From contig JAITUU010000015.1 in the NCBI GenBank assembly GCA_031286165.1, positions 1,558-65,557 of the forward strand: DNA of 64,000 nucleotides, written 5' to 3'. Source of the DNA: Bacteroidales bacterium (GTDB lineage: Bacteria; Bacteroidota; Bacteroidia; Bacteroidales; UBA1715). The notes under the pieces were generated by a model. That model was not told the DNA's origin. It saw nothing but the letters and a program-made list of their open reading frames with translations, and made no database searches. Position numbers and translations under genes: made by a program. Shown one piece after another: positions 1 through 40,687 of this stretch; the stretch's first letter is position 1, and each line of letters begins with the position of its first letter.

Positions 1-3000
1 ATAGACGATGTTGCATTTTCTCGGAACCATGTAATAGTGCCCGTAGGATTTATTGCAGTAAGAAGTGCGGCAGCACTTCCGGCGCAATTTTCATTTCCTA
101 CAAGAACAGGTTTCGCCGGTTGCGGTTTGATTACAAAGGATTTAGAATCCGCAGTGCTTACACACGATACTGTTTCGCCGGTAGAGGCAAGGCGGTCGGA
201 AATTCGTTGTGTAGCCCATATAGTATAGGCATTGGCACCGCTCCACGAAGGAGTAACAGAACCATTGGTACCCAAACCCACGTAGTCGCTTGGCGATTCG
301 GCACCTTGCACACGCGAAGGTGCAGCATTGTACCATTCTATTACAGAACCGGCAGTATTTCCGCTCACGGTAAATGCCGGTGTGATTTCGTATTCGCAAA
401 TAGATACCGGTGTGTTGATAGTAACCGATTGTGCGCGGCGGATTTGAATAGTAAGCGCAGTACGAGGACCTTCGCAGGCAGCAGGTTGTGCGCCGGCATT
501 GCTTTCGCTCACCCAATAGGTAACTTGATTTTGAGTTTTATCGAGAGTGGTAGGTGTCCACGTAGCAGTAGTAGATGCAGCACTGCTTGCAGTGGCTGTG
601 CCTATCAAAGTTCCTCCTGTTTGTGCAGAATAGAAGTTGAATACCGGAGCATGAGTAGTGGGGCGTGCGCCTTGCAACCATTGTCCGCCTTGCACGGTGA
701 GTTCCGGATTGGCGAAATAATCGCAAATAATGCGGTCGGTGGTGAGCGGTGCAGGCACAGGGCACTGAATAATTACGGTGGCAGGGGTGGTAGCACTATT
801 ACAACCGTTCACTACTTGACGAACAAAATATTGTTTGCCCGGAGCTGTTATCTCTACATTGGCAGGGTCGCCGGTAGGGAAAGGATTTTGCGTTCCGTTT
901 GTAAGAACTCCCGCAGTAGTAGTTTGTGATACGGCAGTAGCAAACCATTCTACTCGTTGGAAGCCATTTGCAGCAGTTTCTAAACTTTCGGCTTTTACCA
1001 CCACAGGTCCCGGAGCACTTGGTGCTTGTTTGTAATCTACCGTAGTAGGTGCCGGAACATATTGCACCGGAATAGTAATAGTTTTTTCGTCTTTACAGCC
1101 GTTGTTGTTGGTTACTTGGTATTTTACGGTATAGGTTGCTGTGGTTTCGCCCCACGTGCTTGGGTTGAACAGAGCGTAACTATTTGGTTCGCTGTTGTTT
1201 CCGGGTTCTATGCCGTTTGCGTGTCCTACAATAGTCCATATATTTTGTTCGGCAGTTGTGCCGGTGGTATTGTTACGAGTAACATTTGCAGTAAGCATAT
1301 TTGCGTCATCATAATTACATAATATACCGTTTTTGGCTTGTGAAATACTTGCTATTACCGGGTCGGCAAATACGGTGAGGGTAACGGCTGCTTTTTGACT
1401 TTCGCAGGTTTGACCACTATTTGCTTCGCGAGCAATGTAACTTACCCAATAAGTAGTAGTGCTTTGCGCGGGTGAATTGTAGGTAGAATTATCGCCTCCT
1501 GCGTTAGGTGCGCCCGAAATTAAGGCACCGGCAGTGCCGTTATTGTCGGCATACCAATTCCATTGCGAAGGAGTAGGAGTGGCTGCGCCGGTGGCGGTGG
1601 TAGGTGCTTTTTCGGCTTTGATAGCCAAGCCTGCGCCGGGTAGTTCTTTTTTACACGAAGCGTTTGGAGTGAGGTCGGGTGCTTGGAAAGGGCAGTCCAC
1701 TAATATAAGGTTTACCGGAGTTTGTGCACTTTCGCAACCGCGAGCATTGAATTGGGTAATATTGAATACTTTGGTAAACGGAGCACCATGTGCTTTTGCA
1801 TCGCTGTCTATTTGTTGTGTAATGTTTCCAATATTACTATATGTAGTGCTGTTGTTTTGCAATCCGGTAGTTTTGTCGGTATCGTACCAATTCATTCTAA
1901 TACCCGGTGCTTGCACGGCAGCAGTTACAAACGTGTTAGGAATATTTGCAATGTCGCTAATGAGCCAGTATTTATCTGCCGGTTGCGGCGGCGCAGGGGT
2001 AAATTGTGCGGTAACGGTAAGGTCGTTTTGATTTGGACACGATGCTTGTATTTCGTCAGAACTTCCGTGTTTTTCAGTAATAGTATATATCACTTTCATA
2101 TCTCGTTGTGTATCGCCGTTAGTCCATGGGTCGGCAGTAGCGTCCCACGAGCGACCGATATTCGGTGTAAATCCCTTCCATGAAGAACCGCTTTGGTCAA
2201 ACGTAAATGAAGACGATGAGGAAAGTGTTGAAGGGTCGGGAGTGAGTTTGAATTTTATAGGATTTTCGTTACGTTTTGCGTCGGTGGCACAAAAATAGGT
2301 ATCGCCATTGGTATTATCCACAGTAATAGTAACATTCGGTTTGTTGTGAATAGAAAGAGTTACAATACCGCCCGAAGACCAGCAATCATTGTCCTTGTCG
2401 TATTCGGCTACATAGAGTGTTTGCGTACTTGCTGTTTGGTTGGCAGATGTGTAGGTAGTTCCTGTACCTAAAATAGTTACGCCATTTTGAGGGAAGGTAG
2501 TTGTATTGCCGGTAAGTCCCACAGGGTTTTTATCGAACCATGCTACTTTTGCAGGGTCAGCAAAAACTGTTGCTTCAAGGCTTGCAGTTTCGCCTAAGCA
2601 GAAGTGTGCATTTTTGGCTTCAGGCGTTTGTGCAGGGCACGAAGTTATGTTTAAAATAGCTGCTTGACATTCGCTGTAACAAGTTTCATTTCCCGCAATT
2701 TGTTTTGTAGCGCGAATTTGGTAGGGATATGTTCCTTTTCCATCGGCTTCGGTTTTACCTGTTTGGTACGTCAATCCTTCAAACAAAATACCCGAAGTGG
2801 TGAGCGCATCGCAGTTGCCATTGGCAAACCACTCAATGGCATTTGCTCCGCTTGGAAGTGTTGCTGTTAAGTTGGTATTTTCACCTGCGGTAAAGTTTCC
2901 ATTGCTTTGAATTTGAATAACTTTTTCCACGAGGGTGGGTTGCGTTACTGCCACGCTGGTAACGCTTGTGGTAGCATCGCCTTTACAGCCTTTGTCATCT

Positions 3001-6000
3001 TCGTAGAGGTAACTGAAATTTTGTGTGCCGCCTGCGGCAAACGGTGAATATTCGCCGGTAGAGGCATTTACCGTACCGTTGCTGCTGCTGAATTCGCCGC
3101 CTGAGGGAGCACCTACGAGTGCAAGATTGCTTGCATTCCAGCACACTTCGGCAGGTGCGGTGAGTGTTACCGTAGGAGGGGTATTAATTGTAAACGTAGT
3201 TTCCGCACTTCCTTTACAGTTGTTGGCATCGGTGTAATGTACACTGATAGTTTTTTGTCCGCTGCTTAAGCCGGTGGTGCTGAATGCGCCGGTACTTGTG
3301 TTTATACCTGTTATACCGCTGTATGCAAACCCGGTAGTGTTACCCATTTGCGCAGCAGTAGTAGGTGCGGTAGGAGTTACGGTTATAGTTATATCTTTGG
3401 AAGGATTCAAGGTATTTACTTCGCACGCACTTGCCGCGCTTGGGGCTATGGTGAAAGTTGGGTTCGGATTTACGGTAATAGTAGTTACCGGAGTAGCTTC
3501 GCCAATACAGCCATTGAGGGTAGGGGTAACGGTAATAGTGCTTGTAATAGCAGCATTGGTAGCGTTTTGGGCAGTAAACGATGCTATATATTCCGAACCG
3601 TTTGCGGCTATGCCGGTGGTGGTGTTGGTAGCAGTCCATGCGTAGTCAATGGCACTTGCCGCAGGTGTGCCGGTAAAGGTAATAAGCGTAGTATTTTCTC
3701 CGGCGCAGAGTGTTTGATTCGGAATTACACTTACGGTAGGAATTTCTTTGATTTTTACGGTAGCAGGAGCGGAAGTAGCCTCGCAACCGTTGTTATCTAC
3801 CACTGTTACGCTTGCGCTGTAAATTCCTGCAACGGTAGATGTAAGTACGTTGGTAGTGGCACCGGTTCCGCCACTCACACTTCCGCCTGTGTCGAGTTTC
3901 CAATTTTTGTAGGTATAAGGAGCACTTCCTTTTGCAGGAGTGGCAGTGAGTGTAAGTGCTGCTTTTTGACAGGCTTCGGCAGGGGCTATGGTAGCAGTAG
4001 GAAGTTCATATACTTCAAATTCCACAGTGGCACTCACCGGGCAGGCATTCGATGCCGAGCCTGCAATTTCTACCTGTACTTTGTGTACTCCGGCAGCAAG
4101 ATTGCTCAAATTGACAGGTGTGAGGCTACCATCGCCTGTGGCAGCACTCAATGTACCGCCACCGCTTACTACGGTGTATTTGAGGGATTCGTTTGCGGTG
4201 AGAGAACCGTCTAAACTAAATCGACTGCGAATGTCTATCGAAGTTTTTGTGCCTTCGCAGAAATCAATCTTATCGGTTTTCAGCGTAATGCCCGGAGGTG
4301 TTACTAAGGTAATTTTTACCGAAGCGGCAGAAGTACCTTCGCATTTGTTTGCGTCTTTTATATCGCTTAGCGTATAGATAATCCCTGCGGCATCTCCTGT
4401 CCAGCCGGTAATTTCACTTTTCCCGGTAGCATCGGTAGTGTAGGTTTTTCCGTCTATGGTAAAGTTCACCGGAGAGGCTCCTTTGGTAAATTGCACGGTA
4501 ACAGTGTGCGCGTTCAATTCACTAATGCAGCCGATTTTATCGGGACCTATGGTATAAACAGGGTTTTCGTGTTCTGTTATCGTAATAGCGTTGCTAGTGA
4601 ATGTACAACCATTGAGGGTAATTTTGCAGGTATAAATACCTGCGGTGGCATTATTGAGCGTTGTTGCTGTAGGAGATGCCGCTCCTTGCGAAACGCCGCC
4701 TTTGAACCATTCATAGCTAGCACCGGTAAGGCTAATGCCGGTTTCGGCTTCAAGCGAAAGGCTAATGCCGGTGGCTGATTTTTCGCTTGCGCAGTATTCT
4801 GTTTTTGTGGCATTGAGCGTTGCCTTCGGCGTAGGGTTTATAGTAATAGTTTGGCTTGCGGTAGCAGGCAGTGTACCTGCGCAACCGTTGGCATCGGTAA
4901 ATTCTTTCAGTTCGTAGGTATAAGTGCCGGGTGCGCTTGGCAGCGTAGTGCCGGTAAGGTTTGCCTTAGAAGAAGCAGTAGTACCCGAAGTTACGCCAAG
5001 TCCACCGGTTGTGAAGGTTGAAGTAAAGGTATATTCTGCTTTTCCTCCGGCAAATTCTACCGTAATAGGTGCAACAGTTGCACCCTCGCAGTAGATAGCC
5101 TGTCCGCCCAACGTGGCGGTAGGGGTAGGGTTTGAAACCACCAGTACTGAATCCCATTTGTAGCAGGCGTCAGACGTGGCAAATGCAGCATCGAAGGCTA
5201 ACACATAGAATTTAGTGCCTTGTTCAGTAGCATCGGTATAGTTTATTGTTTGATTTGAAGTAGTTACACCGGTTTCTGTTTTCAAGCCTGTTCCGCCGGT
5301 GCCGGCATTGTAAGTTGCCGTATTTACCGGTGCTTTAATCCAGCGAATGGTGTATTTGGGAGTGTAGGCAGGGCTGGGCATAATATCGTTGGTGCTCAAA
5401 GCCACGCTTTCGCCTTTACATAAGTTAATAGTGCGAATAGTGCCTGCGCCATCGGGAGTAGTTGTAAGCTTAGCCGTACTTGGTGTTTGTATTGCTATGT
5501 CTTTCGATACCGTACAGTCGGGGCAGTTATCTTCTATAAATACCGGCACGCGGTCGCAAAAACGCTGTGCGGTTTGGAATTTGATGTCGAATGCCATGTG
5601 TCCAAAGTTCGATTGATTACCATTGCTACCAATAGCACCACCAAGATTGAACTTAATAATAGTTTGATTCACATCATCGTTTCCGCTATTAGCCAATGTA
5701 CATGAAGTGGCAAATACTTTTGGATTGCCAAGTCCGGTACCGCTGTATGCAGATGGACCTATAAAATATTCACCCGGAGCCAAAGTTACACTTCCTTTTG
5801 CAATTAATTCAACCATTAAATCTTGTACTTCGCTACCTCGTGTTCTTTCGTATAAATCAGTTACCAAAGTACCGACTGCGGTTCCGGTGGGAACTTTCGT
5901 ATTACTGTTGGTACCTGCTTTGTATATTCCTAAGGTAACTGTTCCACTTCCAGATGCACCAACATTATACAATGACGACATAAAGAATAATTTAGATTCT

Positions 6001-16714: not shown

Positions 16715-16827
16715 GATTGCTTCGTTCATCGCAATGACACTTTTGTATATATTCTTGCGCACTCCATTTATTTCTTCGTCATTACCTTCGGTGAGGGCTT
16801 CGCCGTTGCGAACGTAGTGAAGCAATC
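16715..16827. repeat. GATTGCTTC...GAAGCAATC REP-like palindromic doublet with 24-nt nested module (copy 1)
   Basis: Inverted arms gattgcttcgttcatcgcaatgac and gtcatt[24 nt]gcgaacgtagtgaagcaatc; similar to 29858-29942. Confidence 0.8.
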
Positions 16828-17093
16828 TATGTTAGTTGTTAGGTTTCATCTGTTAGTACTCATTTCTCTCATCTCAAAATTCGGTCAAAAATAATCATTA
16901 CCTATTAATCAGTAACCATTAATTTAAAAATTTATTGTATTTGTTTGGTATTAGTTGTTAGTTGTTAGTTTTCAGTTTTCAGTTCTCCACGAAATAAAAA
17001 TATGAGCAAAAACATAAAAAAATACCGAAGAAAAATTTTGCCGTTTCATTCAGTGTGGTATATTTGCAAAACCAATTAGTAAAAAAACTGCTT

Positions 17094-26137: not shown

Positions 26138-27094
26138 ATGCAAAAAGTGTTGTTCATAATCAATCCTATGTCGGGCACCGGACGGCAGAAACGAATGATA
26201 GAGAACTATGCGCGAGAATTTTTACCTGCGGCGGATTTTGAATTGCATTTTTCTTACACCGAATACGCCGGTCATGCCATACAGTTGAGCAACAATGCGC
26301 GAAATATATTCGACATAGTGGTGGCGGTGGGCGGCGATGGCACTATTCACGAAGTGGCGCAACCGCTTGTTCATTCCAACACTACGCTCGCCATTATTCC
26401 TATGGGGTCTGGCAATGGATTGTCGCGTTTTTTGCACATTCCGCTCTCTATTCGCCCTGCTATTCGCTTAATAGCCGAAGGACGAAAAATGCAAATGGAT
26501 ACGATTTTGTGCAACAATGAATATGTGCTCAATATTGCCGGTTTTGGTTTCGATGCCGTTATCGGCGATTTATTCAACATCAATGTAACCAAGCGCGGTG
26601 GGCTGAAATACGTGCATTTGGTGAGCAAGGAATTATTTCACTACAAACCGCAAACTTTTACGTTCAACAGCGAAAACAAAGAATTTACCCGTACATTTTT
26701 TATAGGTGCCATAGCCAATGCCAATCAATATGGGCTGAATGCGCATATAGCACCCACTGCCGATGTTACCGATGGAAAATTTGAAGTGGTGTTTATAGAA
26801 AAATTTCCGCCGCTTTTCACCCTCAAACTTGCCATAGACCTTTTTACCAATCGCATACACAAATCGCGCTATGTGGAAACTCTGCAAGTGGATTCACTTA
26901 CCATACAAAATGCGCGACCTTATACCATTCACATGGACGGCGAACCGCGTGTAATGTATTCCGACATTAATTTTTCCATAGCACCGCAATCACTCACGGT
27001 TATTGCAGGCGAGAAAAAGGAACTTCCTCTTACTGCCATTGCGCGAAAAACCCGAAATATTCTCGCGCACGAGGAAATACACATACATGATTAA
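26138..27094 (+). CDS. Diacylglycerol kinase family (YegS/DAGKc) lipid kinase
   Basis: IINPMSG, VGGDGTIHEV, PMGSGNGL, HMDGE. Confidence 0.92.
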   Translation: MQKVLFIINPMSGTGRQKRMIENYAREFLPAADFELHFSYTEYAGHAIQLSNNARNIFDIVVAVGGDGTIHEVAQPLVHSNTTLAIIPMGSGNGLSRFLHIPLSIRPAIRLIAEGRKMQMDTILCNNEYVLNIAGFGFDAVIGDLFNINVTKRGGLKYVHLVSKELFHYKPQTFTFNSENKEFTRTFFIGAIANANQYGLNAHIAPTADVTDGKFEVVFIEKFPPLFTLKLAIDLFTNRIHKSRYVETLQVDSLTIQNARPYTIHMDGEPRVMYSDINFSIAPQSLTVIAGEKKELPLTAIARKTRNILAHEEIHIHD

Positions 27095-27130
27095 TTGCAG
27101 AGAAATTTTGATTTTCCCCATTTATTCCAA

Positions 27131-27157
27131 GTCATTCCTGCTTTCGCAGGAATGGAC
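27131..27157. repeat. GTCATTCC-type REP-like hairpin
   Basis: cattcctgc-tttc-gcaggaatg stem-loop between convergent genes. Confidence 0.6.
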
Positions 27158-27193
27158 GGGTTACTTTTAGATGTTACGCTTATTTTAGAGAAA

Positions 27194-27784
27194 TTAGAAC
27201 AACACGTTGATTGCGTGAGCAAGTCGTCCCCAGCCTTGTCCGCCGAAAAGTACGAAAATCAAAATAAACGGTAGCACAATGAGGGTGTAATAGCGCGTAA
27301 AGAGCAATTCCACCAATGCACTGCGGAAAGAAAAAAGAAGAAAGATAACTAAGGGAAGGAGCAATAATGCTACCCAAAGAACAAAGCCATCGTTGTAAAT
27401 ATTGGCATGGCGAATTTTTTGAGTGTTAGTATCTACACTAAGGTATTTTGCTTGCCCAAACCAACGAGTAGAGTACGCAGATATAGTATTTGCGCCCATC
27501 AATATTGCTACATTCGACCGCCCGTTAATATTTCCTTGCGGGTGAAAACGAAATACTCTGTCTCCTACTGTTACTTGTACGTCTGAAACCAAATCATTCG
27601 TATGGCTCATTTGTAACTGTGCGGCAAATTCCGGAACAGAAACTTGCACCACAGTATTGTCGTAAAAATAATCAACGATACATACAAGTGCTATAACTGC
27701 GGCAAACACTGCCACGATTTTTGATAATGGATACTGCCACGATTGTTTGTAATTGCCGAGTTCCTGTTCAAATTTTGTTTCCAT
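27194..27784 (-). CDS. Hypothetical membrane protein (about 3 TM)
   Basis: Open frame with hydrophobic segments, directly downstream of the leuS half gene. Confidence 0.65.
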   Translation of the reverse strand: METKFEQELGNYKQSWQYPLSKIVAVFAAVIALVCIVDYFYDNTVVQVSVPEFAAQLQMSHTNDLVSDVQVTVGDRVFRFHPQGNINGRSNVAILMGANTISAYSTRWFGQAKYLSVDTNTQKIRHANIYNDGFVLWVALLLLPLVIFLLFSFRSALVELLFTRYYTLIVLPFILIFVLFGGQGWGRLAHAINVLF

Positions 27785-27812
27785 GAGTATTACTTTTTTT
27801 AGGTTAAATGTT

Positions 27813-28988
27813 TTATAGTACAATATTAATAATTTTTCCCGGAACTACAATAACTTTTTTGGGAACATTTCCACTGAGATATTTCATACTTTGACTATCG
27901 TTTAGCACAGCCTTTTCTATATCTTCTTTGCTTGTGCCGGTGGCAAATTCAAGGGTAAAACGCACTTTTCCGTTGAAAGATACGGGATATTTTACCGTAT
28001 TTTCCTGTAAAAATTTCTCGTTATATTCAGGAAATTGCGCATTGCAAATGCTGTGAGAGTGCCCCAATCGGCTGTATAATTCTTCGGCAATATGCGGTGC
28101 AAATGGCGCAAGGCACACAAGAAGTGGTTTTAAAATCGCTCGTTTATTGCACTGCACGCGCTGCAATTCGTTCACACAAATCATAAATGCCGAAACAGCG
28201 GTATTAAACGAAAAGTTTTCAATATCCGAAGTTACTTTTTTAATGAGGGTGTGCAGTATTTTCAGTTCTTCGGCTGTGGGGGCTTCGGTGGAAATTGCAA
28301 ATTCATCGCGATTAAAAAACAGTGCCCATAATTTTTTCAAAAATCGGTGCACACCGTCAATTCCCTTCATATCCCATGGTTTCGATTGTTCCAAAGGACC
28401 GAGAAACATTTCGTACATGCGCAGGGTGTCGGCTCCGTAGCGTTCCACTATGCTGTCGGGATTCACCACGTTGAACATAGATTTCGACATTTTTTCCACC
28501 GCATGACCGCAGTGATATTTTCCGTCTTCTAAAATAAATTCCGCATCGGCAAAATCGGGTCGCCACTTTTTAAATGCTTCTGTATCAAGAATATCGTTTT
28601 CCACTATATTCACGTCCACGTGTAATTGCGTGGTATCGTATTGGTCTTTCAATCCCAGCGACACAAAGGTATTGCTGCCTTGTATGCGATACACAAAATT
28701 CGAGCGACCTTGTATCATACCTTGATTGATAAGTTTTTGAAAGGGTTCATCTTTGGCTATCGTGCCCAAATCGAACAAAAATTTATTCCAAAACCGGCTG
28801 TAAATTAAGTGCCCGGTAGCGTGTTCGGTTCCTCCCAAGTATAAATCCACATTGCCCCAATAGTCATTCGCTTTTTTTGAAACAAGTGCGTTTTGGTTAT
28901 GGGGGTCTTCGTAGCGCAAATAATAGGCTGAACTGCCGGCAAAACCCGGCATGGTATTGAGTTCGAGAGGATATTTTTTTGATTCCAT
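27813..28988 (-). CDS. leuS: Leucyl-tRNA synthetase, C-terminal half only (putative beta subunit)
   Basis: [68 protein letters not shown]; no HIGH motif or CP1 domain; 391 aa. Confidence 0.93.
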
Positions 28989-29010
28989 AGGTTTTTCAAC
29001 TGTAATAGTG

Positions 29011-29041
29011 CAAAAATAAACAAAATGCGTAAACTACCAAA
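29011..29041 (-). promoter_or_regulatory. Consensus Bacteroidota promoter of the leuS C-half gene
   Basis: Minus strand TTTG-N19-TATTTTTG, 22 nt upstream of ATG 28988. Confidence 0.8.
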
Positions 29042-29086
29042 CTCCGTGTTTTTTATTTACTTTTGTGCGTTGAATTATTGAAGAAT

Positions 29087-29794
29087 ATGCTCAAAATCTA
29101 TCCTCATATTGGCACTGTGGAAATTGTGGCAAATAAACGCCTGACACGCATTAGTTTGAAAGTGGGAAAATCGGGCGTACCGCAACTTTCTATGCCGCAC
29201 CTGCGCTATTTGCCCGATGCTGAGGCGTTTTTACTGCAAAAATCGGCATGGATAGAGAGTGCAAAGCGCAAAATAGCGCAGCGCACACCAAAACAAACGC
29301 TGTTTTCCGCCGGCGACACTCTTACGCCGCAACACAGTTTGCGTTTTGTGCAAGTAGAATATACGCAGAGAGTACGCGCAAAAATTAGCGAAACGGAAGT
29401 TATAGTGTTTCACGCGCCGCAGGTAGAGAGCGGCGATTACCGTGTGCAGGAGTGTGTAGCAAAAGCACGCGAGCAGGCATTGGTGAATATGGCGCAGATG
29501 CACATTCCTTCGCGATTGCAAAAACTTGCACAAGACTATCATTTTACTTACGCACAGTGCAAGATTTCGCGAGCAAAAGGTCGCTGGGGTAGTTGCTCTC
29601 ACGCCAATAGTATTTCTATCAGTTGTTACATTATGCTGCTGCCGCCGCATTTGATTGATTTTATTTTGCTCCACGAACTTACGCACAGTATTCATAAAAA
29701 TCATGGTGCCGCCTTTCATGCCTACTTGCAACGCTTGCTGCCAAAACCCGAAAAAGACTACGAACAGGAAATTCGGAAATACTCCATTCGATAG
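29087..29794 (+). CDS. YgjP/DUF45 (M48-like) zinc metallohydrolase
   Basis: KGRWGSCS, ILLHELTH, NHGAAF; own -7 box at 29058-29065. Confidence 0.88.
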   Translation: MLKIYPHIGTVEIVANKRLTRISLKVGKSGVPQLSMPHLRYLPDAEAFLLQKSAWIESAKRKIAQRTPKQTLFSAGDTLTPQHSLRFVQVEYTQRVRAKISETEVIVFHAPQVESGDYRVQECVAKAREQALVNMAQMHIPSRLQKLAQDYHFTYAQCKISRAKGRWGSCSHANSISISCYIMLLPPHLIDFILLHELTHSIHKNHGAAFHAYLQRLLPKPEKDYEQEIRKYSIR

Positions 29795-29857
29795 TATTTT
29801 TAAGTATAAATACGAATAGTGGGGTAAAATTTTTGCTGTACTTTTGCAATTCAAATA

Positions 29858-29942
29858 GATTGCTTCACTATGTTCGCAATGACGCTTTTTTCTCATCATT
29901 ACCTTCGATGAGGGCTACACCGTTGCGAGGAACGAAGCAATC
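29858..29942. repeat. GATTGCTTC REP-like doublet with 24-nt nested module (copy 2)
   Basis: gattgcttcactatgttcgcaatgac ... tcatt[accttcgatgagggctacaccgtt]gcgaggaacgaagcaatc. Confidence 0.8.
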
Positions 29943-29959
29943 CGGAAAGGAACTAACAA

Positions 29960-30451
29960 ATGACAACGAACGAACTGTTTGCACTGAATGAAATAATTGG
30001 CGCACAATTACGTGCGAAAAATGCAAGTCTTGCCACTGCCGAAAGTTGCACCGGCGGAGCCGTAGCACAGAGTATTACGGCAATTTCGGGTTGTTCGGCA
30101 TATTTCAAAGGCAGTGTGGTGGCGTATTCCAACGAAGTAAAACAAAATCTGTTGCACGTGCCGGAGTTTATTATTACATCGCACGGCGCGGTGAGCAAGG
30201 AGTGTGTGCAGGCAATGGCGCAGAATTGCCGCAGAATTTTCAATACCACTTACGCTATAGCCACCAGCGGCATAGCCGGACCGGGCGGCGGCACTGACGA
30301 AAAACCGGTGGGCACGGTGTGGATTGCTGTTGCCGCGCCACAGGGAATCGTGTCGCACAAATGCGCATTTTCCGGCACTCGCGCACACATAGTGGAGCAA
30401 ACGCTGCTTGTCTCGCTGCAAATGCTCCTTCACGAAGTAGAACAACAATAA
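29960..30451 (+). CDS. pncC: CinA C-terminal domain protein (NMN deamidase)
   Basis: ATAESCTGG, GAVSKE, SGIAGPGGGTDEKPVGTVW. Confidence 0.88.
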   Translation: MTTNELFALNEIIGAQLRAKNASLATAESCTGGAVAQSITAISGCSAYFKGSVVAYSNEVKQNLLHVPEFIITSHGAVSKECVQAMAQNCRRIFNTTYAIATSGIAGPGGGTDEKPVGTVWIAVAAPQGIVSHKCAFSGTRAHIVEQTLLVSLQMLLHEVEQQ

Positions 30452-30467
30452 ATAGTAGAATTTTCGT

Positions 30468-31421
30468 ATGATACAACAACTGATAGCCGACATTAAAGCC
30501 GGTGCCGAAATAGATTTTGAAACGGCTTGCAAACTTGCAGAATATGCAAACAAAGAAGAACTTTACGAGGGCGCAAATACCTTACGCGAATATTTTTGCA
30601 ATGCCGCGCTGCAACTTTGCTCTATAACCAACGCAAAATCGGGGCTGTGCAGCGAAAATTGCAAGTGGTGTAGTCAGTCGGCACACAACAAGTGTAAGAT
30701 AGATATTTACGATAGTATAGACAAAAATACCGCCGTAGCGCAGGCAGTGGCAAATGGCAAAGCCGGTGTGCACAGGCACGGATTGGTAACAAGCGGACGC
30801 ACCGTATCGCCGCAAACGTTGCAAAATTGTGTTTCGATTTATCGCGAAATTGCACAAAAATCGCCCATAAAACTATGTGCTTCAATGGGTTTACTCACAA
30901 AAGAACAGTTGCAGGAATTGAAAGATGCCGGAGTAACGCGCTATCACTGTAATTTGGAAACTGCGCCATCGTTTTTCCCGAACTTGTGCAGCACTCACAG
31001 CGTTGAAGAAAAAATTGCAACTATTCGTGCTGCGCAAGCAATTGGTTTGGAAGTGTGTTCGGGCGGCATTATCGGTATGGGCGAAACTATGGCACAACGC
31101 ATAGAATTGGCACTCGCACTACGCGATTTAGGTATTCGTTCCATTCCTATCAATATTTTGAATCCCATAGAAGGCACACCGCTTTTTGGCATGCCGCCAC
31201 TTTCTGATGAGGAAATTCTTACAAGTTTTGCACTCTTCCGTTTTATCAATCCGCGAGCCTATTTGCGCTTTGCCGGCGGACGACTTTCTATTCAACACTT
31301 GCAGGGGAAAGCACTCAAATCGGGCATTAATGCTTCTATTACCGGCGATATGCTCACCACGCACGGTGTGCAGGTGCAAGACGATGTGAATACATTTCGC
31401 GCAGCAGGCTTTGTTATTTAA
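30468..31421 (+). CDS. bioB: Biotin synthase
   Basis: NAKSGLCSENCKWCSQS, YHCNLET, CSGGIIGMGE, RFAGGR. Confidence 0.96.
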   Translation: MIQQLIADIKAGAEIDFETACKLAEYANKEELYEGANTLREYFCNAALQLCSITNAKSGLCSENCKWCSQSAHNKCKIDIYDSIDKNTAVAQAVANGKAGVHRHGLVTSGRTVSPQTLQNCVSIYREIAQKSPIKLCASMGLLTKEQLQELKDAGVTRYHCNLETAPSFFPNLCSTHSVEEKIATIRAAQAIGLEVCSGGIIGMGETMAQRIELALALRDLGIRSIPINILNPIEGTPLFGMPPLSDEEILTSFALFRFINPRAYLRFAGGRLSIQHLQGKALKSGINASITGDMLTTHGVQVQDDVNTFRAAGFVI

Positions 31422-32478: not shown

Positions 32479-32517
32479 AGGTTGTTATAAATTATCTACT
32501 CAAAGTATTGCCATAGA

Positions 32518-32543
32518 GATTGCTTCACTTCGTTCGCAATGCC
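32518..32543. repeat. Solo GATTGCTTC REP-like arm
   Basis: gattgcttcacttcgttcgcaatg. Confidence 0.7.
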
Positions 32544-32586
32544 GTTTTGCATTTGTTGAAGAAACAATTAACCATCAATTAGTACG

Positions 32587-40613: not shown

Positions 40614-40687
40614 GGGCTCATAGCTCAGTTGGTTAGAGCACCTGACTCATAATCAGGGGGTCACAGGTTCAAGCCCTGTTGAGCCCA
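40614..40687 (+). tRNA. tRNA with CAT anticodon, most likely tRNA-Ile2 (lysidine-modified); CCA not encoded
   Basis: Acceptor stem GGGCTCA/TGAGCCC, D arm AGCTCAGTTGGTTAGAGC, anticodon arm CCTGA-CTCATAA-TCAGG, T loop GGTTCAAG; -7 box at 40577-40584. Confidence 0.93.

Follow-up and report, generated by a model that had tools for sequence, protein, structure and literature searches.

The two-chain leucyl-tRNA synthetase (LeuRS) of Aquifex aeolicus, with subunits of 634 and 289 aa, is often taken as a relic of synthetase evolution, and no other natural two-chain LeuRS was found to be treated in the literature that we searched. The Aquifex enzyme is divided inside an enlarged leucine-specific domain, just before the KMSKS motif (PMC3643597). 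Comparable arrangements are described for phages. In Aeromonas phage Aeh1 the mobE homing endonuclease splits the NrdA gene, and the tails at the break are shown to be required (PMC3045599). In fractured genes the pieces are rejoined by split inteins, and the genes concerned code for DNA-metabolism enzymes, mainly of phages (PMC2677866).

Here we analyze a 64,000-nt stretch of DNA from a Bacteroidales bacterium (the window) that contains an ORF coding for the C-terminal half of LeuRS (C-half). From sequence comparison we consider it highly probable that this ORF codes for the C-terminal subunit of a functional, naturally split LeuRS that is encoded by two genes and acts as a heterodimer. The break, which is located in a loop, was probably made by gene insertion, the two genes being unlinked later. 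Among the freely accessible articles that we searched, none describes a split LeuRS from Bacteroidota.

Results

A stand-alone gene codes for the C-terminal half of LeuRS

The features of the locus, together with the genes found between the LeuRS halves of its relatives, are collected in Table 1. A preliminary description of this DNA had reported a clean, stand-alone LeuRS C-half of 391 aa that is devoid of the HIGH motif and the CP1 editing domain, and both the ORF and the profile matches agree with this. Specifically, the C-half matches positions 484-842 of the 843 in the TIGR00396 (leuS_bact) model (E 4e-94), with a score of 316 bits that falls below the curated whole-protein cut-off of 548.4 bits. 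Its Pfam match is to Anticodon_1 (PF08264, residues 242-354), residues 165-192 match the KMSKS stretch of tRNA-synt_1, and neither the Pfam nor the TIGR00396 matches include a HIGH region or an editing domain. The C-half contains the second half of the Rossmann fold, the leucine-specific insertion, KMSKS (residues 166-170), and the anticodon-binding and C-terminal domains. From residue 9-10 to its end it aligns with residues 501-876 of the solved Neisseria LeuRS and 495-875 of the Thermus LeuRS, and it is 65-76% identical to the corresponding part of the 920-960-aa leuS frames across Bacteroidales.

Table 1. Features around the C-half gene in the window, and genes located between the LeuRS halves in relatives.
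Feature	Position	Strand	Description
Putative C-half subunit gene of split LeuRS ('beta-like')	27813..28988	-	ORF of 391 aa, ATG start
A-rich leader	28989..29010	-	22 nt, between promoter-like motif and ATG, read directly
Promoter-like motif	29011..29041	-	TTTG-N19-TATTTTTG (-33/-7 type), 22 nt before C-half ATG
YgjP-like metallopeptidase-domain protein gene	29063..29794	+	Divergent; PF01863, E 6.8e-33
Membrane-protein gene downstream of C-half	27194..27784	-	No Pfam family
Repeat element of about 88 bp with inverted ends	29857..29943	.	Second copy on contig C53
Insert in G002			RhuM+Fic protein and two small paralogous proteins
Insert in L124			RhuM/Fic alone; spacers of 5 bp and 18 bp
Insert in L123			Mrr restriction endonuclease and RhuM/Fic
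Insert in L127			YhcG/DUF1016 nuclease
Insert in L202			DUF3843
Insert in L203			YhcG remnant
Insert in L207			RhuM/Fic remnant and one further gene

The promoter-like motif and the A-rich leader that had been described ahead of the C-half are both present. The pattern TTTG-N18-20-TATTTTTG occurs eight times in the window against 2.3 occurrences expected, a count that was reached in 0 of 100 shuffles, and we take its N19 form to be the Bacteroidota promoter consensus, promoters of this phylum being unlike those of the sigma-70 type. The divergent gene that had been placed about 100 bp upstream is the YgjP-like gene, which starts at 29063 (TTG) or at 29087 (ATG), 74-98 bp from the C-half start. 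Since this gene bounds the upstream region of the C-half there is no room there for the N-terminal half (N-half), and no frameshifted N-half remnant was found upstream of the C-half among the ORFs of the window. On the other side synteny is kept, since homologues of the membrane-protein gene follow the C-half in both congeners.

The N-terminal half is encoded on another contig and no intact leuS is present

The genome that contains the window (G000) is a metagenome-assembled genome (MAG) of 56 contigs that is 98.7% complete with 1.46% contamination. The preliminary description had predicted that a separate N-half carrying HIGH and CP1, and ending near the break, would be found outside the window, and such an ORF is indeed located on contig C53, whereas the C-half is on contig C5, where the genome search matched model positions 474-842. 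This 552-aa ORF covers positions 1-475 of TIGR00396 (608 bits), carries the first Rossmann half with HVGH at residues 48-51 and the CP1 editing domain (PF13603, residues 283-450), ends in ...PPLGRAKNWVYEAKD followed by a stop codon, and is followed in turn by rplM and rpsI. About 50 nt ahead of it is a -7-type TATTTTTG alone; no exact TTTG partner for this element was found upstream of the N-half. Jointly, the N-half and the C-half cover positions 1-842 of the 843 in TIGR00396, with the HIGH and KMSKS signatures both present and divided between two chains, and their 552 and 391 aa add up to 943 aa, most Bacteroidales leuS frames being of 920-960 aa. As the halves are on different contigs of a MAG, it is binning, together with the situation in the congener G002 described below, that places them in the same cell.

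A search of all 56 contigs with the LeuRS model revealed no full-length leuS, the absence of which had also been predicted, and no other LeuRS of either bacterial or archaeal type; the remaining matches were IleRS-, ValRS- or MetRS-sized frames. The essentiality of the enzyme, the selection acting on both halves and the lack of any other LeuRS together suggest that leucylation of tRNA-Leu is carried out by the split LeuRS.

The break is located in a variable surface loop

By extrapolation from the alignments, the break maps to approximately residue 485 of the Thermus LeuRS, and to residues 480-500 of the Neisseria enzyme, which is about 165 residues before KMSKS and ahead of the second Rossmann half. 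The preliminary description had placed the Aquifex break further downstream, in the leucine-specific domain, in accord with the Aquifex report (PMC3643597). The Bacteroidales break falls in a short variable surface loop that comes after a conserved PPLGRAxxW and before a conserved PLE-containing stretch. In G000 the loop reads ...NWVYEAKD-stop on the N-half, with a new start, MESKK-YPLE, on the C-half, whereas the loops of whole genes are continuous and read ...NWKYEKYPLE... (L032) or ...NWKTEEGYPLE.... The L032 protein is a single-chain LeuRS that is 76% identical to the C-half, and the whole-gene relatives closest to the window, L032 among them, have a short loop. The split forms look like this short loop opened with a few added residues on each side, the tails past the conserved residues being only about 3-20 residues long.

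Split LeuRS genes are widespread in Bacteroidales

We searched for short relatives with residues 1-100 of the C-half as query against proteins of 215-685 aa, which gave 4416 matches. Among the matches listed, 98 of 119 other short relatives open with M followed by 2-36 residues and YPLE, FPLE or HPLE, and the remainder are contig-end fragments of whole genes. The lengths of the listed short relatives cluster at 391-397 aa, some of them are on contigs of 100-211 kb, and their source names include 'leucyl-tRNA synthetase [Candidatus Symbiothrix dinenymphae]' and 'hypothetical protein [Bacteroidia bacterium]'. In a mirror search with the last 110 residues of the N-half, 119 of the 120 relatives listed were parsed (P0121-P0239, with P0065 left out). 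Of these, 63 stop no more than 23 residues after the conserved W, with the consensus W-V-Y-E-E-K, and 56 continue into the C part. Both types of halves are found on contigs of up to 211 kb.

The split is also observed in genomes. Among the best 80 loci of species-representative genomes three are split (L041, L045 and L046, labelled as Dysgonamonadaceae and Prevotellaceae bacteria), as are, cleanly, five of the 80 loci listed from metagenome contigs. In each of the genomes G321 and G323 an N-half and a C-half occur once, on separate contigs, and a whole-genome check found no whole leuS in either of them; in G322 (1.4 Mb) a C-half alone was found. Frames of 394-420 aa are present in 12 of 41 genomes around G321, and all ten that were fetched start with M...[YF]PLE. 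In a 301-genome sample of the order, short frames occurred only in G000 and in the frameshifted G182 among the 150 rows listed, beyond which the search had 178 further rows. Every complete split case has exactly one matching N-half. Thus, the earlier proposal of a split peculiar to this lineage holds in that the split is real, and fails in that the split occurs widely in Bacteroidales metagenomes and genomes. Four loci considered as further split cases (G001, G039, G182 and L166) were set aside as contig-end or frameshift cases.

The distribution of the split on gene trees was analyzed with C-part trees of 196 rows (FastTree) and 74 rows (IQ-TREE, LG+G4). The split label needs 16 changes on both trees, of which well-supported branches force at least nine (FastTree) and at least seven (IQ-TREE). 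Forcing the 42 split rows into one clade costs 512 log-likelihood units (AU p 9e-23), and the split proteins L070, L100 and L069 are well-supported sisters of whole genes that have unrelated loop types. As read from these gene trees, this shows repeated change of state at one loop, with which independent insertions, re-fusions and lateral spread are all compatible.

Both halves are maintained

The preliminary description had reasoned that its reading would fall if the genome had an intact leuS and relatives lacked the half gene, or if the gene evolved neutrally. The congener G002 exhibits the same split, with 2.3 kb between two halves that share a contig and a strand, its N-half ending in ...DWVYEEKK-stop and its C-half starting with MKTKKYPLE... 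at the same break. The third congener, G001, is uninformative since both of its pieces touch contig ends. Pairwise Nei-Gojobori comparison of the congeners gave dN/dS values of 0.06-0.09 for both halves (0.07-0.09 for the C-half), figures that are rough since dS, about 1.5 between G000 and G002, is near saturation. On these estimates both halves are under purifying selection, and a dS of about 1.5 at such a low dN/dS indicates that the halves have remained separate and constrained genes over a long period of divergence. For the same region other split pairs have dN/dS values of 0.06-0.10 versus 0.02-0.05 for whole-gene pairs, so the ratio in split lineages appears to be about twice that of whole genes, a mild relaxation at most.

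The motifs had been described as undecayed, and this extends to the relatives. Among 44 aligned N-halves the catalytic and editing motifs H48-V49-G50-H51, T309-T310-R311 and H404-D405 are invariant. The Rossmann-half motifs are likewise invariant across 48 aligned C-halves, as are K166, M167 and K169 of KMSKS, while its S168 and S170 are conserved in 90% or more of the rows.

Modelling the halves together, as had been suggested, yielded an ipSAE of 0.86 from a co-fold of the two alignments, as against 0.00 for the best of three controls, with a partner pLDDT of 89 and with 98% or more of the contacts shared between runs. Of 80 solved complexes 58 attain the mark of this tool, as do 2 of 110 mismatched pairs; since the halves resemble solved single-chain LeuRS, a pass may reflect memory and indicates likeness, not binding. 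The tightest contacts are between residues 33-36 of the N-half and 47-50 of the C-half, which in the model we read as neighbouring Rossmann strands. In the proposed enzyme the two polypeptides would associate non-covalently and rebuild the normal LeuRS fold, with the central beta-sheet of the active site formed across the chains, one of which would provide HIGH and the other KMSKS.

These data bear on whether the locus could instead result from faulty assembly or binning, or be a leuS that broke recently and is being lost, so that the ORF would be a fragment of a normal gene. We regard this as very improbable and as already largely refuted. The MAG does consist of 56 contigs, and broken copies of leuS are met nearby: in G182 the loop carries a plain frameshift, leuS being intact in its two congeners, in G039 a frameshift has left overlapping pieces, and L166 has a stop in the loop. 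Against this, the C-half has a clean ATG and a promoter-like motif and sits more than 27 kb from both ends of the window, and the same stop/start pair recurs in G002, G321, G323 and many metagenome proteins. The misassembly near 28990 that the preliminary description wanted excluded is not seen, as an 8312-base Logan contig (run X1) spans 27000-30500 in one piece with 0 differences; it represents a second assembler and not second data, since X1 may be the source sample. Among the runs listed as containing this stretch none is an RNA run. The low dN/dS over a dS of about 1.5, and the lack of another LeuRS in a 98.7% complete genome, argue likewise against decay.

The C-half could also be a stand-alone tRNA-binding paralog that has no role in aminoacylation, with leucylation performed by something else, as the preliminary description had offered as its alternative. 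Free tRNA-binding fragments of synthetases exist, and the anticodon-binding and C-terminal tRNA-binding domains are both kept in the C-half, but nothing else in the genome was found able to charge tRNA-Leu, KMSKS is conserved as described above, and each complete case has exactly one N-half to match, the two halves being co-oriented in one cluster in seven loci. This alternative thus goes unsupported, and we consider it exceedingly improbable.

Foreign genes separate the halves in relatives

The order N-half, insert, C-half on one strand is observed in seven loci (L021, L123, L124, L127, L202, L203 and L207), with inserts that vary in content (Table 1). Some of the inserts have nuclease domains (Mrr_cat, YhcG PDDEXK) and others are RhuM/Fic or DUF3843 genes. 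A RhuM gene also ends just ahead of the C-half in L122, G321 and G322. No N-half was found nearby in nine loci with 3-6.5 kb of upstream sequence (the window, L046, L122, L204, L205 and L208-L211). Among the upstream genes of these loci are DUF3843 in L204 and, in L205, a helicase together with an ADP-ribosyltransferase/glycohydrolase pair. In G000 no foreign gene is found beside either half, unless the YgjP-like gene is counted as one. An 84%-identical copy of the 88-bp repeat of the window is located directly after the N-half stop on contig C53 (L001, 1388-1476), and these two copies may have been left behind by the rearrangement through which the halves became separated. The metagenome protein P0065 reads through both tags (...DWVYMENNKNKKYPLE...), as would be expected of either a re-fusion or a precursor.

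We give almost no credence to the idea that protein trans-splicing, an intron or recoding joins the halves again or lets them be read as a single chain. Fractured genes, in which an endonuclease sits between the halves of a split intein, do exist (PMC2677866), but the LeuRS tails are too short for intein halves, Rfam detected no group I or group II intron in the window, L021, L123, L124, L127 or L001, the L124 spacers are too small for an intron, and the halves of G000 are on different contigs.

The split was probably made by gene insertion, as judged from the relatives. In this proposal foreign genes (RhuM/Fic, Mrr, YhcG/DUF1016 or DUF3843) would have inserted into the leuS loop and split the gene, giving an operon of N-half, insert and C-half that is still seen in relatives. 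In G000 the halves would later have moved apart, with the C-half transcribed from its own promoter. Given the inserts, the opened loop, the P0065 read-through and the lack of an intron or intein, we regard the linked arrangement as older than the unlinked one of G000. The earlier suggestion that the N-half is encoded elsewhere is borne out for G000, while an origin of the split within this lineage gives way to a likely insertion followed by secondary unlinking.

Identity among the RhuM/Fic proteins of G002, L123 and L124 is 74-77%, and among the corresponding C-halves it is 74-75%. The RhuM/Fic proteins have diverged about as much as the C-halves, which points to old co-inheritance in these three loci and not to recent transfer of a cassette. 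In what is a weak test, nine split and 147 whole loci were compared for identity at third codon positions, in windows of 60 nt that cover the 330 nt following the junction. Values for split-split pairs were uniformly higher, by about 0.04-0.10, and did not peak next to the junction, so that no sign of a co-conversion tract was seen.

It is conceivable, although on balance we doubt it, that a guild of selfish or defence genes (RhuM/Fic, Mrr, YhcG, DUF3843 and others) preferentially lands and is exchanged in the leuS loop. These genes would bring ready-made adaptors, and the resulting arrangement would spread sideways between leuS alleles of gut Bacteroidales. The adaptors would be W-x-Y-E-E-K-stop on one side and an M-E-N-K-K start on the other, and on account of them the essential enzyme would survive as two chains. 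The insert would be co-transcribed with the enzyme and could not be lost by imprecise deletion, and sideways spread would account for the occurrence of split forms with similar tags at scattered places in the gene tree.

Discussion

A split LeuRS in Bacteroidales would constitute a second, unrelated LeuRS break point that occurs in a different phylum and in many species, with intermediates that still indicate how it was made. As a natural experiment it would tell at which points the catalytic fold of a class Ia synthetase can be cut with the enzyme still working, and it would be a cellular counterpart to the phage 'genes in pieces', with foreign genes sheltered by an essential one. There is also a warning for annotation and for the scoring of genome completeness, since public records name these halves 'hypothetical', 'partial' or 'class I tRNA ligase family protein'.

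Relative to ordinary single-chain Bacteroidales LeuRS, such as that of L032, the enzyme is of the same type, the difference being that in the former the loop is continuous and there is one polypeptide. Like the alpha-beta LeuRS of Aquifex, the Bacteroidales enzyme is of bacterial type and encoded by two genes, with HIGH on the first chain and KMSKS plus the anticodon-binding and C-terminal domains on the second. Activity of the Aquifex enzyme needs both chains, and we infer the same for the Bacteroidales halves. There are several important differences. The Bacteroidales break comes well before KMSKS and leaves the leucine-specific insertion whole in the C-half, the halves are of 552 and 391 aa instead of 634 and 289 aa, and the phylum is Bacteroidota. 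Furthermore, in Bacteroidales relatives foreign genes are located between the halves, and the split recurs many times on the gene tree.

The order of enzyme-N, inserted gene and enzyme-C is that of the fractured genes, which differ in that no intein parts are present at the LeuRS break. The similarity to Aeh1 NrdA goes further, as in both cases the gene of an essential enzyme is cut, for LeuRS probably, by an inserted gene, both pieces are kept, short new tails are present at the break, and the active site is made up, or in the case of LeuRS would be made up, of two chains. The foreign gene between co-oriented halves that characterizes Aeh1 is found in the seven relative loci and not in G000. 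Finally, the Aeh1 enzyme is a phage ribonucleotide reductase whereas the LeuRS case involves a tRNA synthetase in a cellular host, and the Aeh1 insert is a known homing endonuclease whereas the LeuRS inserts are varied (RhuM/Fic, Mrr, YhcG and DUF3843).

Insertions and apparent breaks at the LeuRS break loop

The variable surface loop at which leucyl-tRNA synthetase (LeuRS) is split evidently tolerates insertions. In-frame inserts that resemble translated repeat elements are present within LeuRS loops at five loci (L021 and L023, which belong to the congeners G002 and G001, respectively, as well as L049, L055 and L056), with the G002 protein providing the examples ...LPPAPSSRGGESPLEGGGG... and ...FPPSQTTRAENIPPLRQ... 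An insert of the form ...PSPSKGGGENSDSN...SPSPSGRVGEG... sits precisely at the break loop in three whole, unsplit LeuRS genes. There are also plain frameshifts or stops at or close to this loop in the otherwise whole leuS genes of L025 (genome G182), L024 (genome G039) and L166, which represent either sequencing errors or young breaks; leuS is intact in both congeners of G182.

Added sequence is also observed in the N-halves. Those of approximately 690-745 aa, found among the relatives' proteins P0126, P0136, P0148, P0152, P0156, P0180, P0186 and P0216, owe their length to an in-frame DUF559 domain that precedes the editing-domain match, and the DUF559-bearing N-halves end at the usual W-x-Y-E... 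break. Regarding the C-halves, the gene upstream of the C-half in locus L208 starts with MTDIFDIQQTAEN..., which is near-identical to the tag (MTDVFDIQQTAENEYPLE...) at the N-terminus of P0019, a C-half. Tag sequence seems to have been duplicated or swapped between the C-half and inserted genes.

Other features of the window

Copies of a short inverted-end repeat (GATTGCTTC...GAAGCAATC) are dispersed through the genome that contains the window, and comparison with contigs from a second assembler showed additional contig pieces stacking over the copy at window 29850-29940. The two ORFs past this repeat are, as judged from their sequences, presumably CinA/PncC-like (163 aa) and biotin-synthase-like (317 aa), and we take them to be ordinary housekeeping neighbours. 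Besides one tRNA gene, the window has no Rfam match to an RNA family.

Coordinates of LeuRS variants, associated domains and window features
Feature	Location	Strand	Details
Frameshifted leuS	L025 (G182:C48) 2889..5677		
LeuRS with in-loop insert	L021 (G002) N-half 506..2200		Repeat-like translated sequence
Gene upstream of C-half	L208 1872..3470	-	532 aa
DUF559 in N-half	P0126 residues 367-470		PF04480, Vsr-like endonuclease fold
DUF559 in N-half	P0216 residues 319-425		PF04480, Vsr-like endonuclease fold
Inverted-end repeat copies	Window 29857-29943, 32517-32546, 16806-16828; N-half locus L001 1388-1476		
tRNA gene	Window 40614-40687	+	Rfam RF00005, 75 bits
163-aa ORF and 317-aa ORF	Window 29960-31421	+	Past inverted-end repeat

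Two LeuRS types

Most of the order has a LeuRS type of 920-960 aa that exhibits 65-76% identity to the window C-half. Genomes G003-G023, which fall in the remaining genera (g2-g5) of the window's own family (f1), have a distinct, more canonical type with frames of approximately 870-900 aa, and the three of these that were tested against the window C-half (G003, G004 and G006) gave E values of only ~1e-62. Lateral transfer is the probable source of one of these types.
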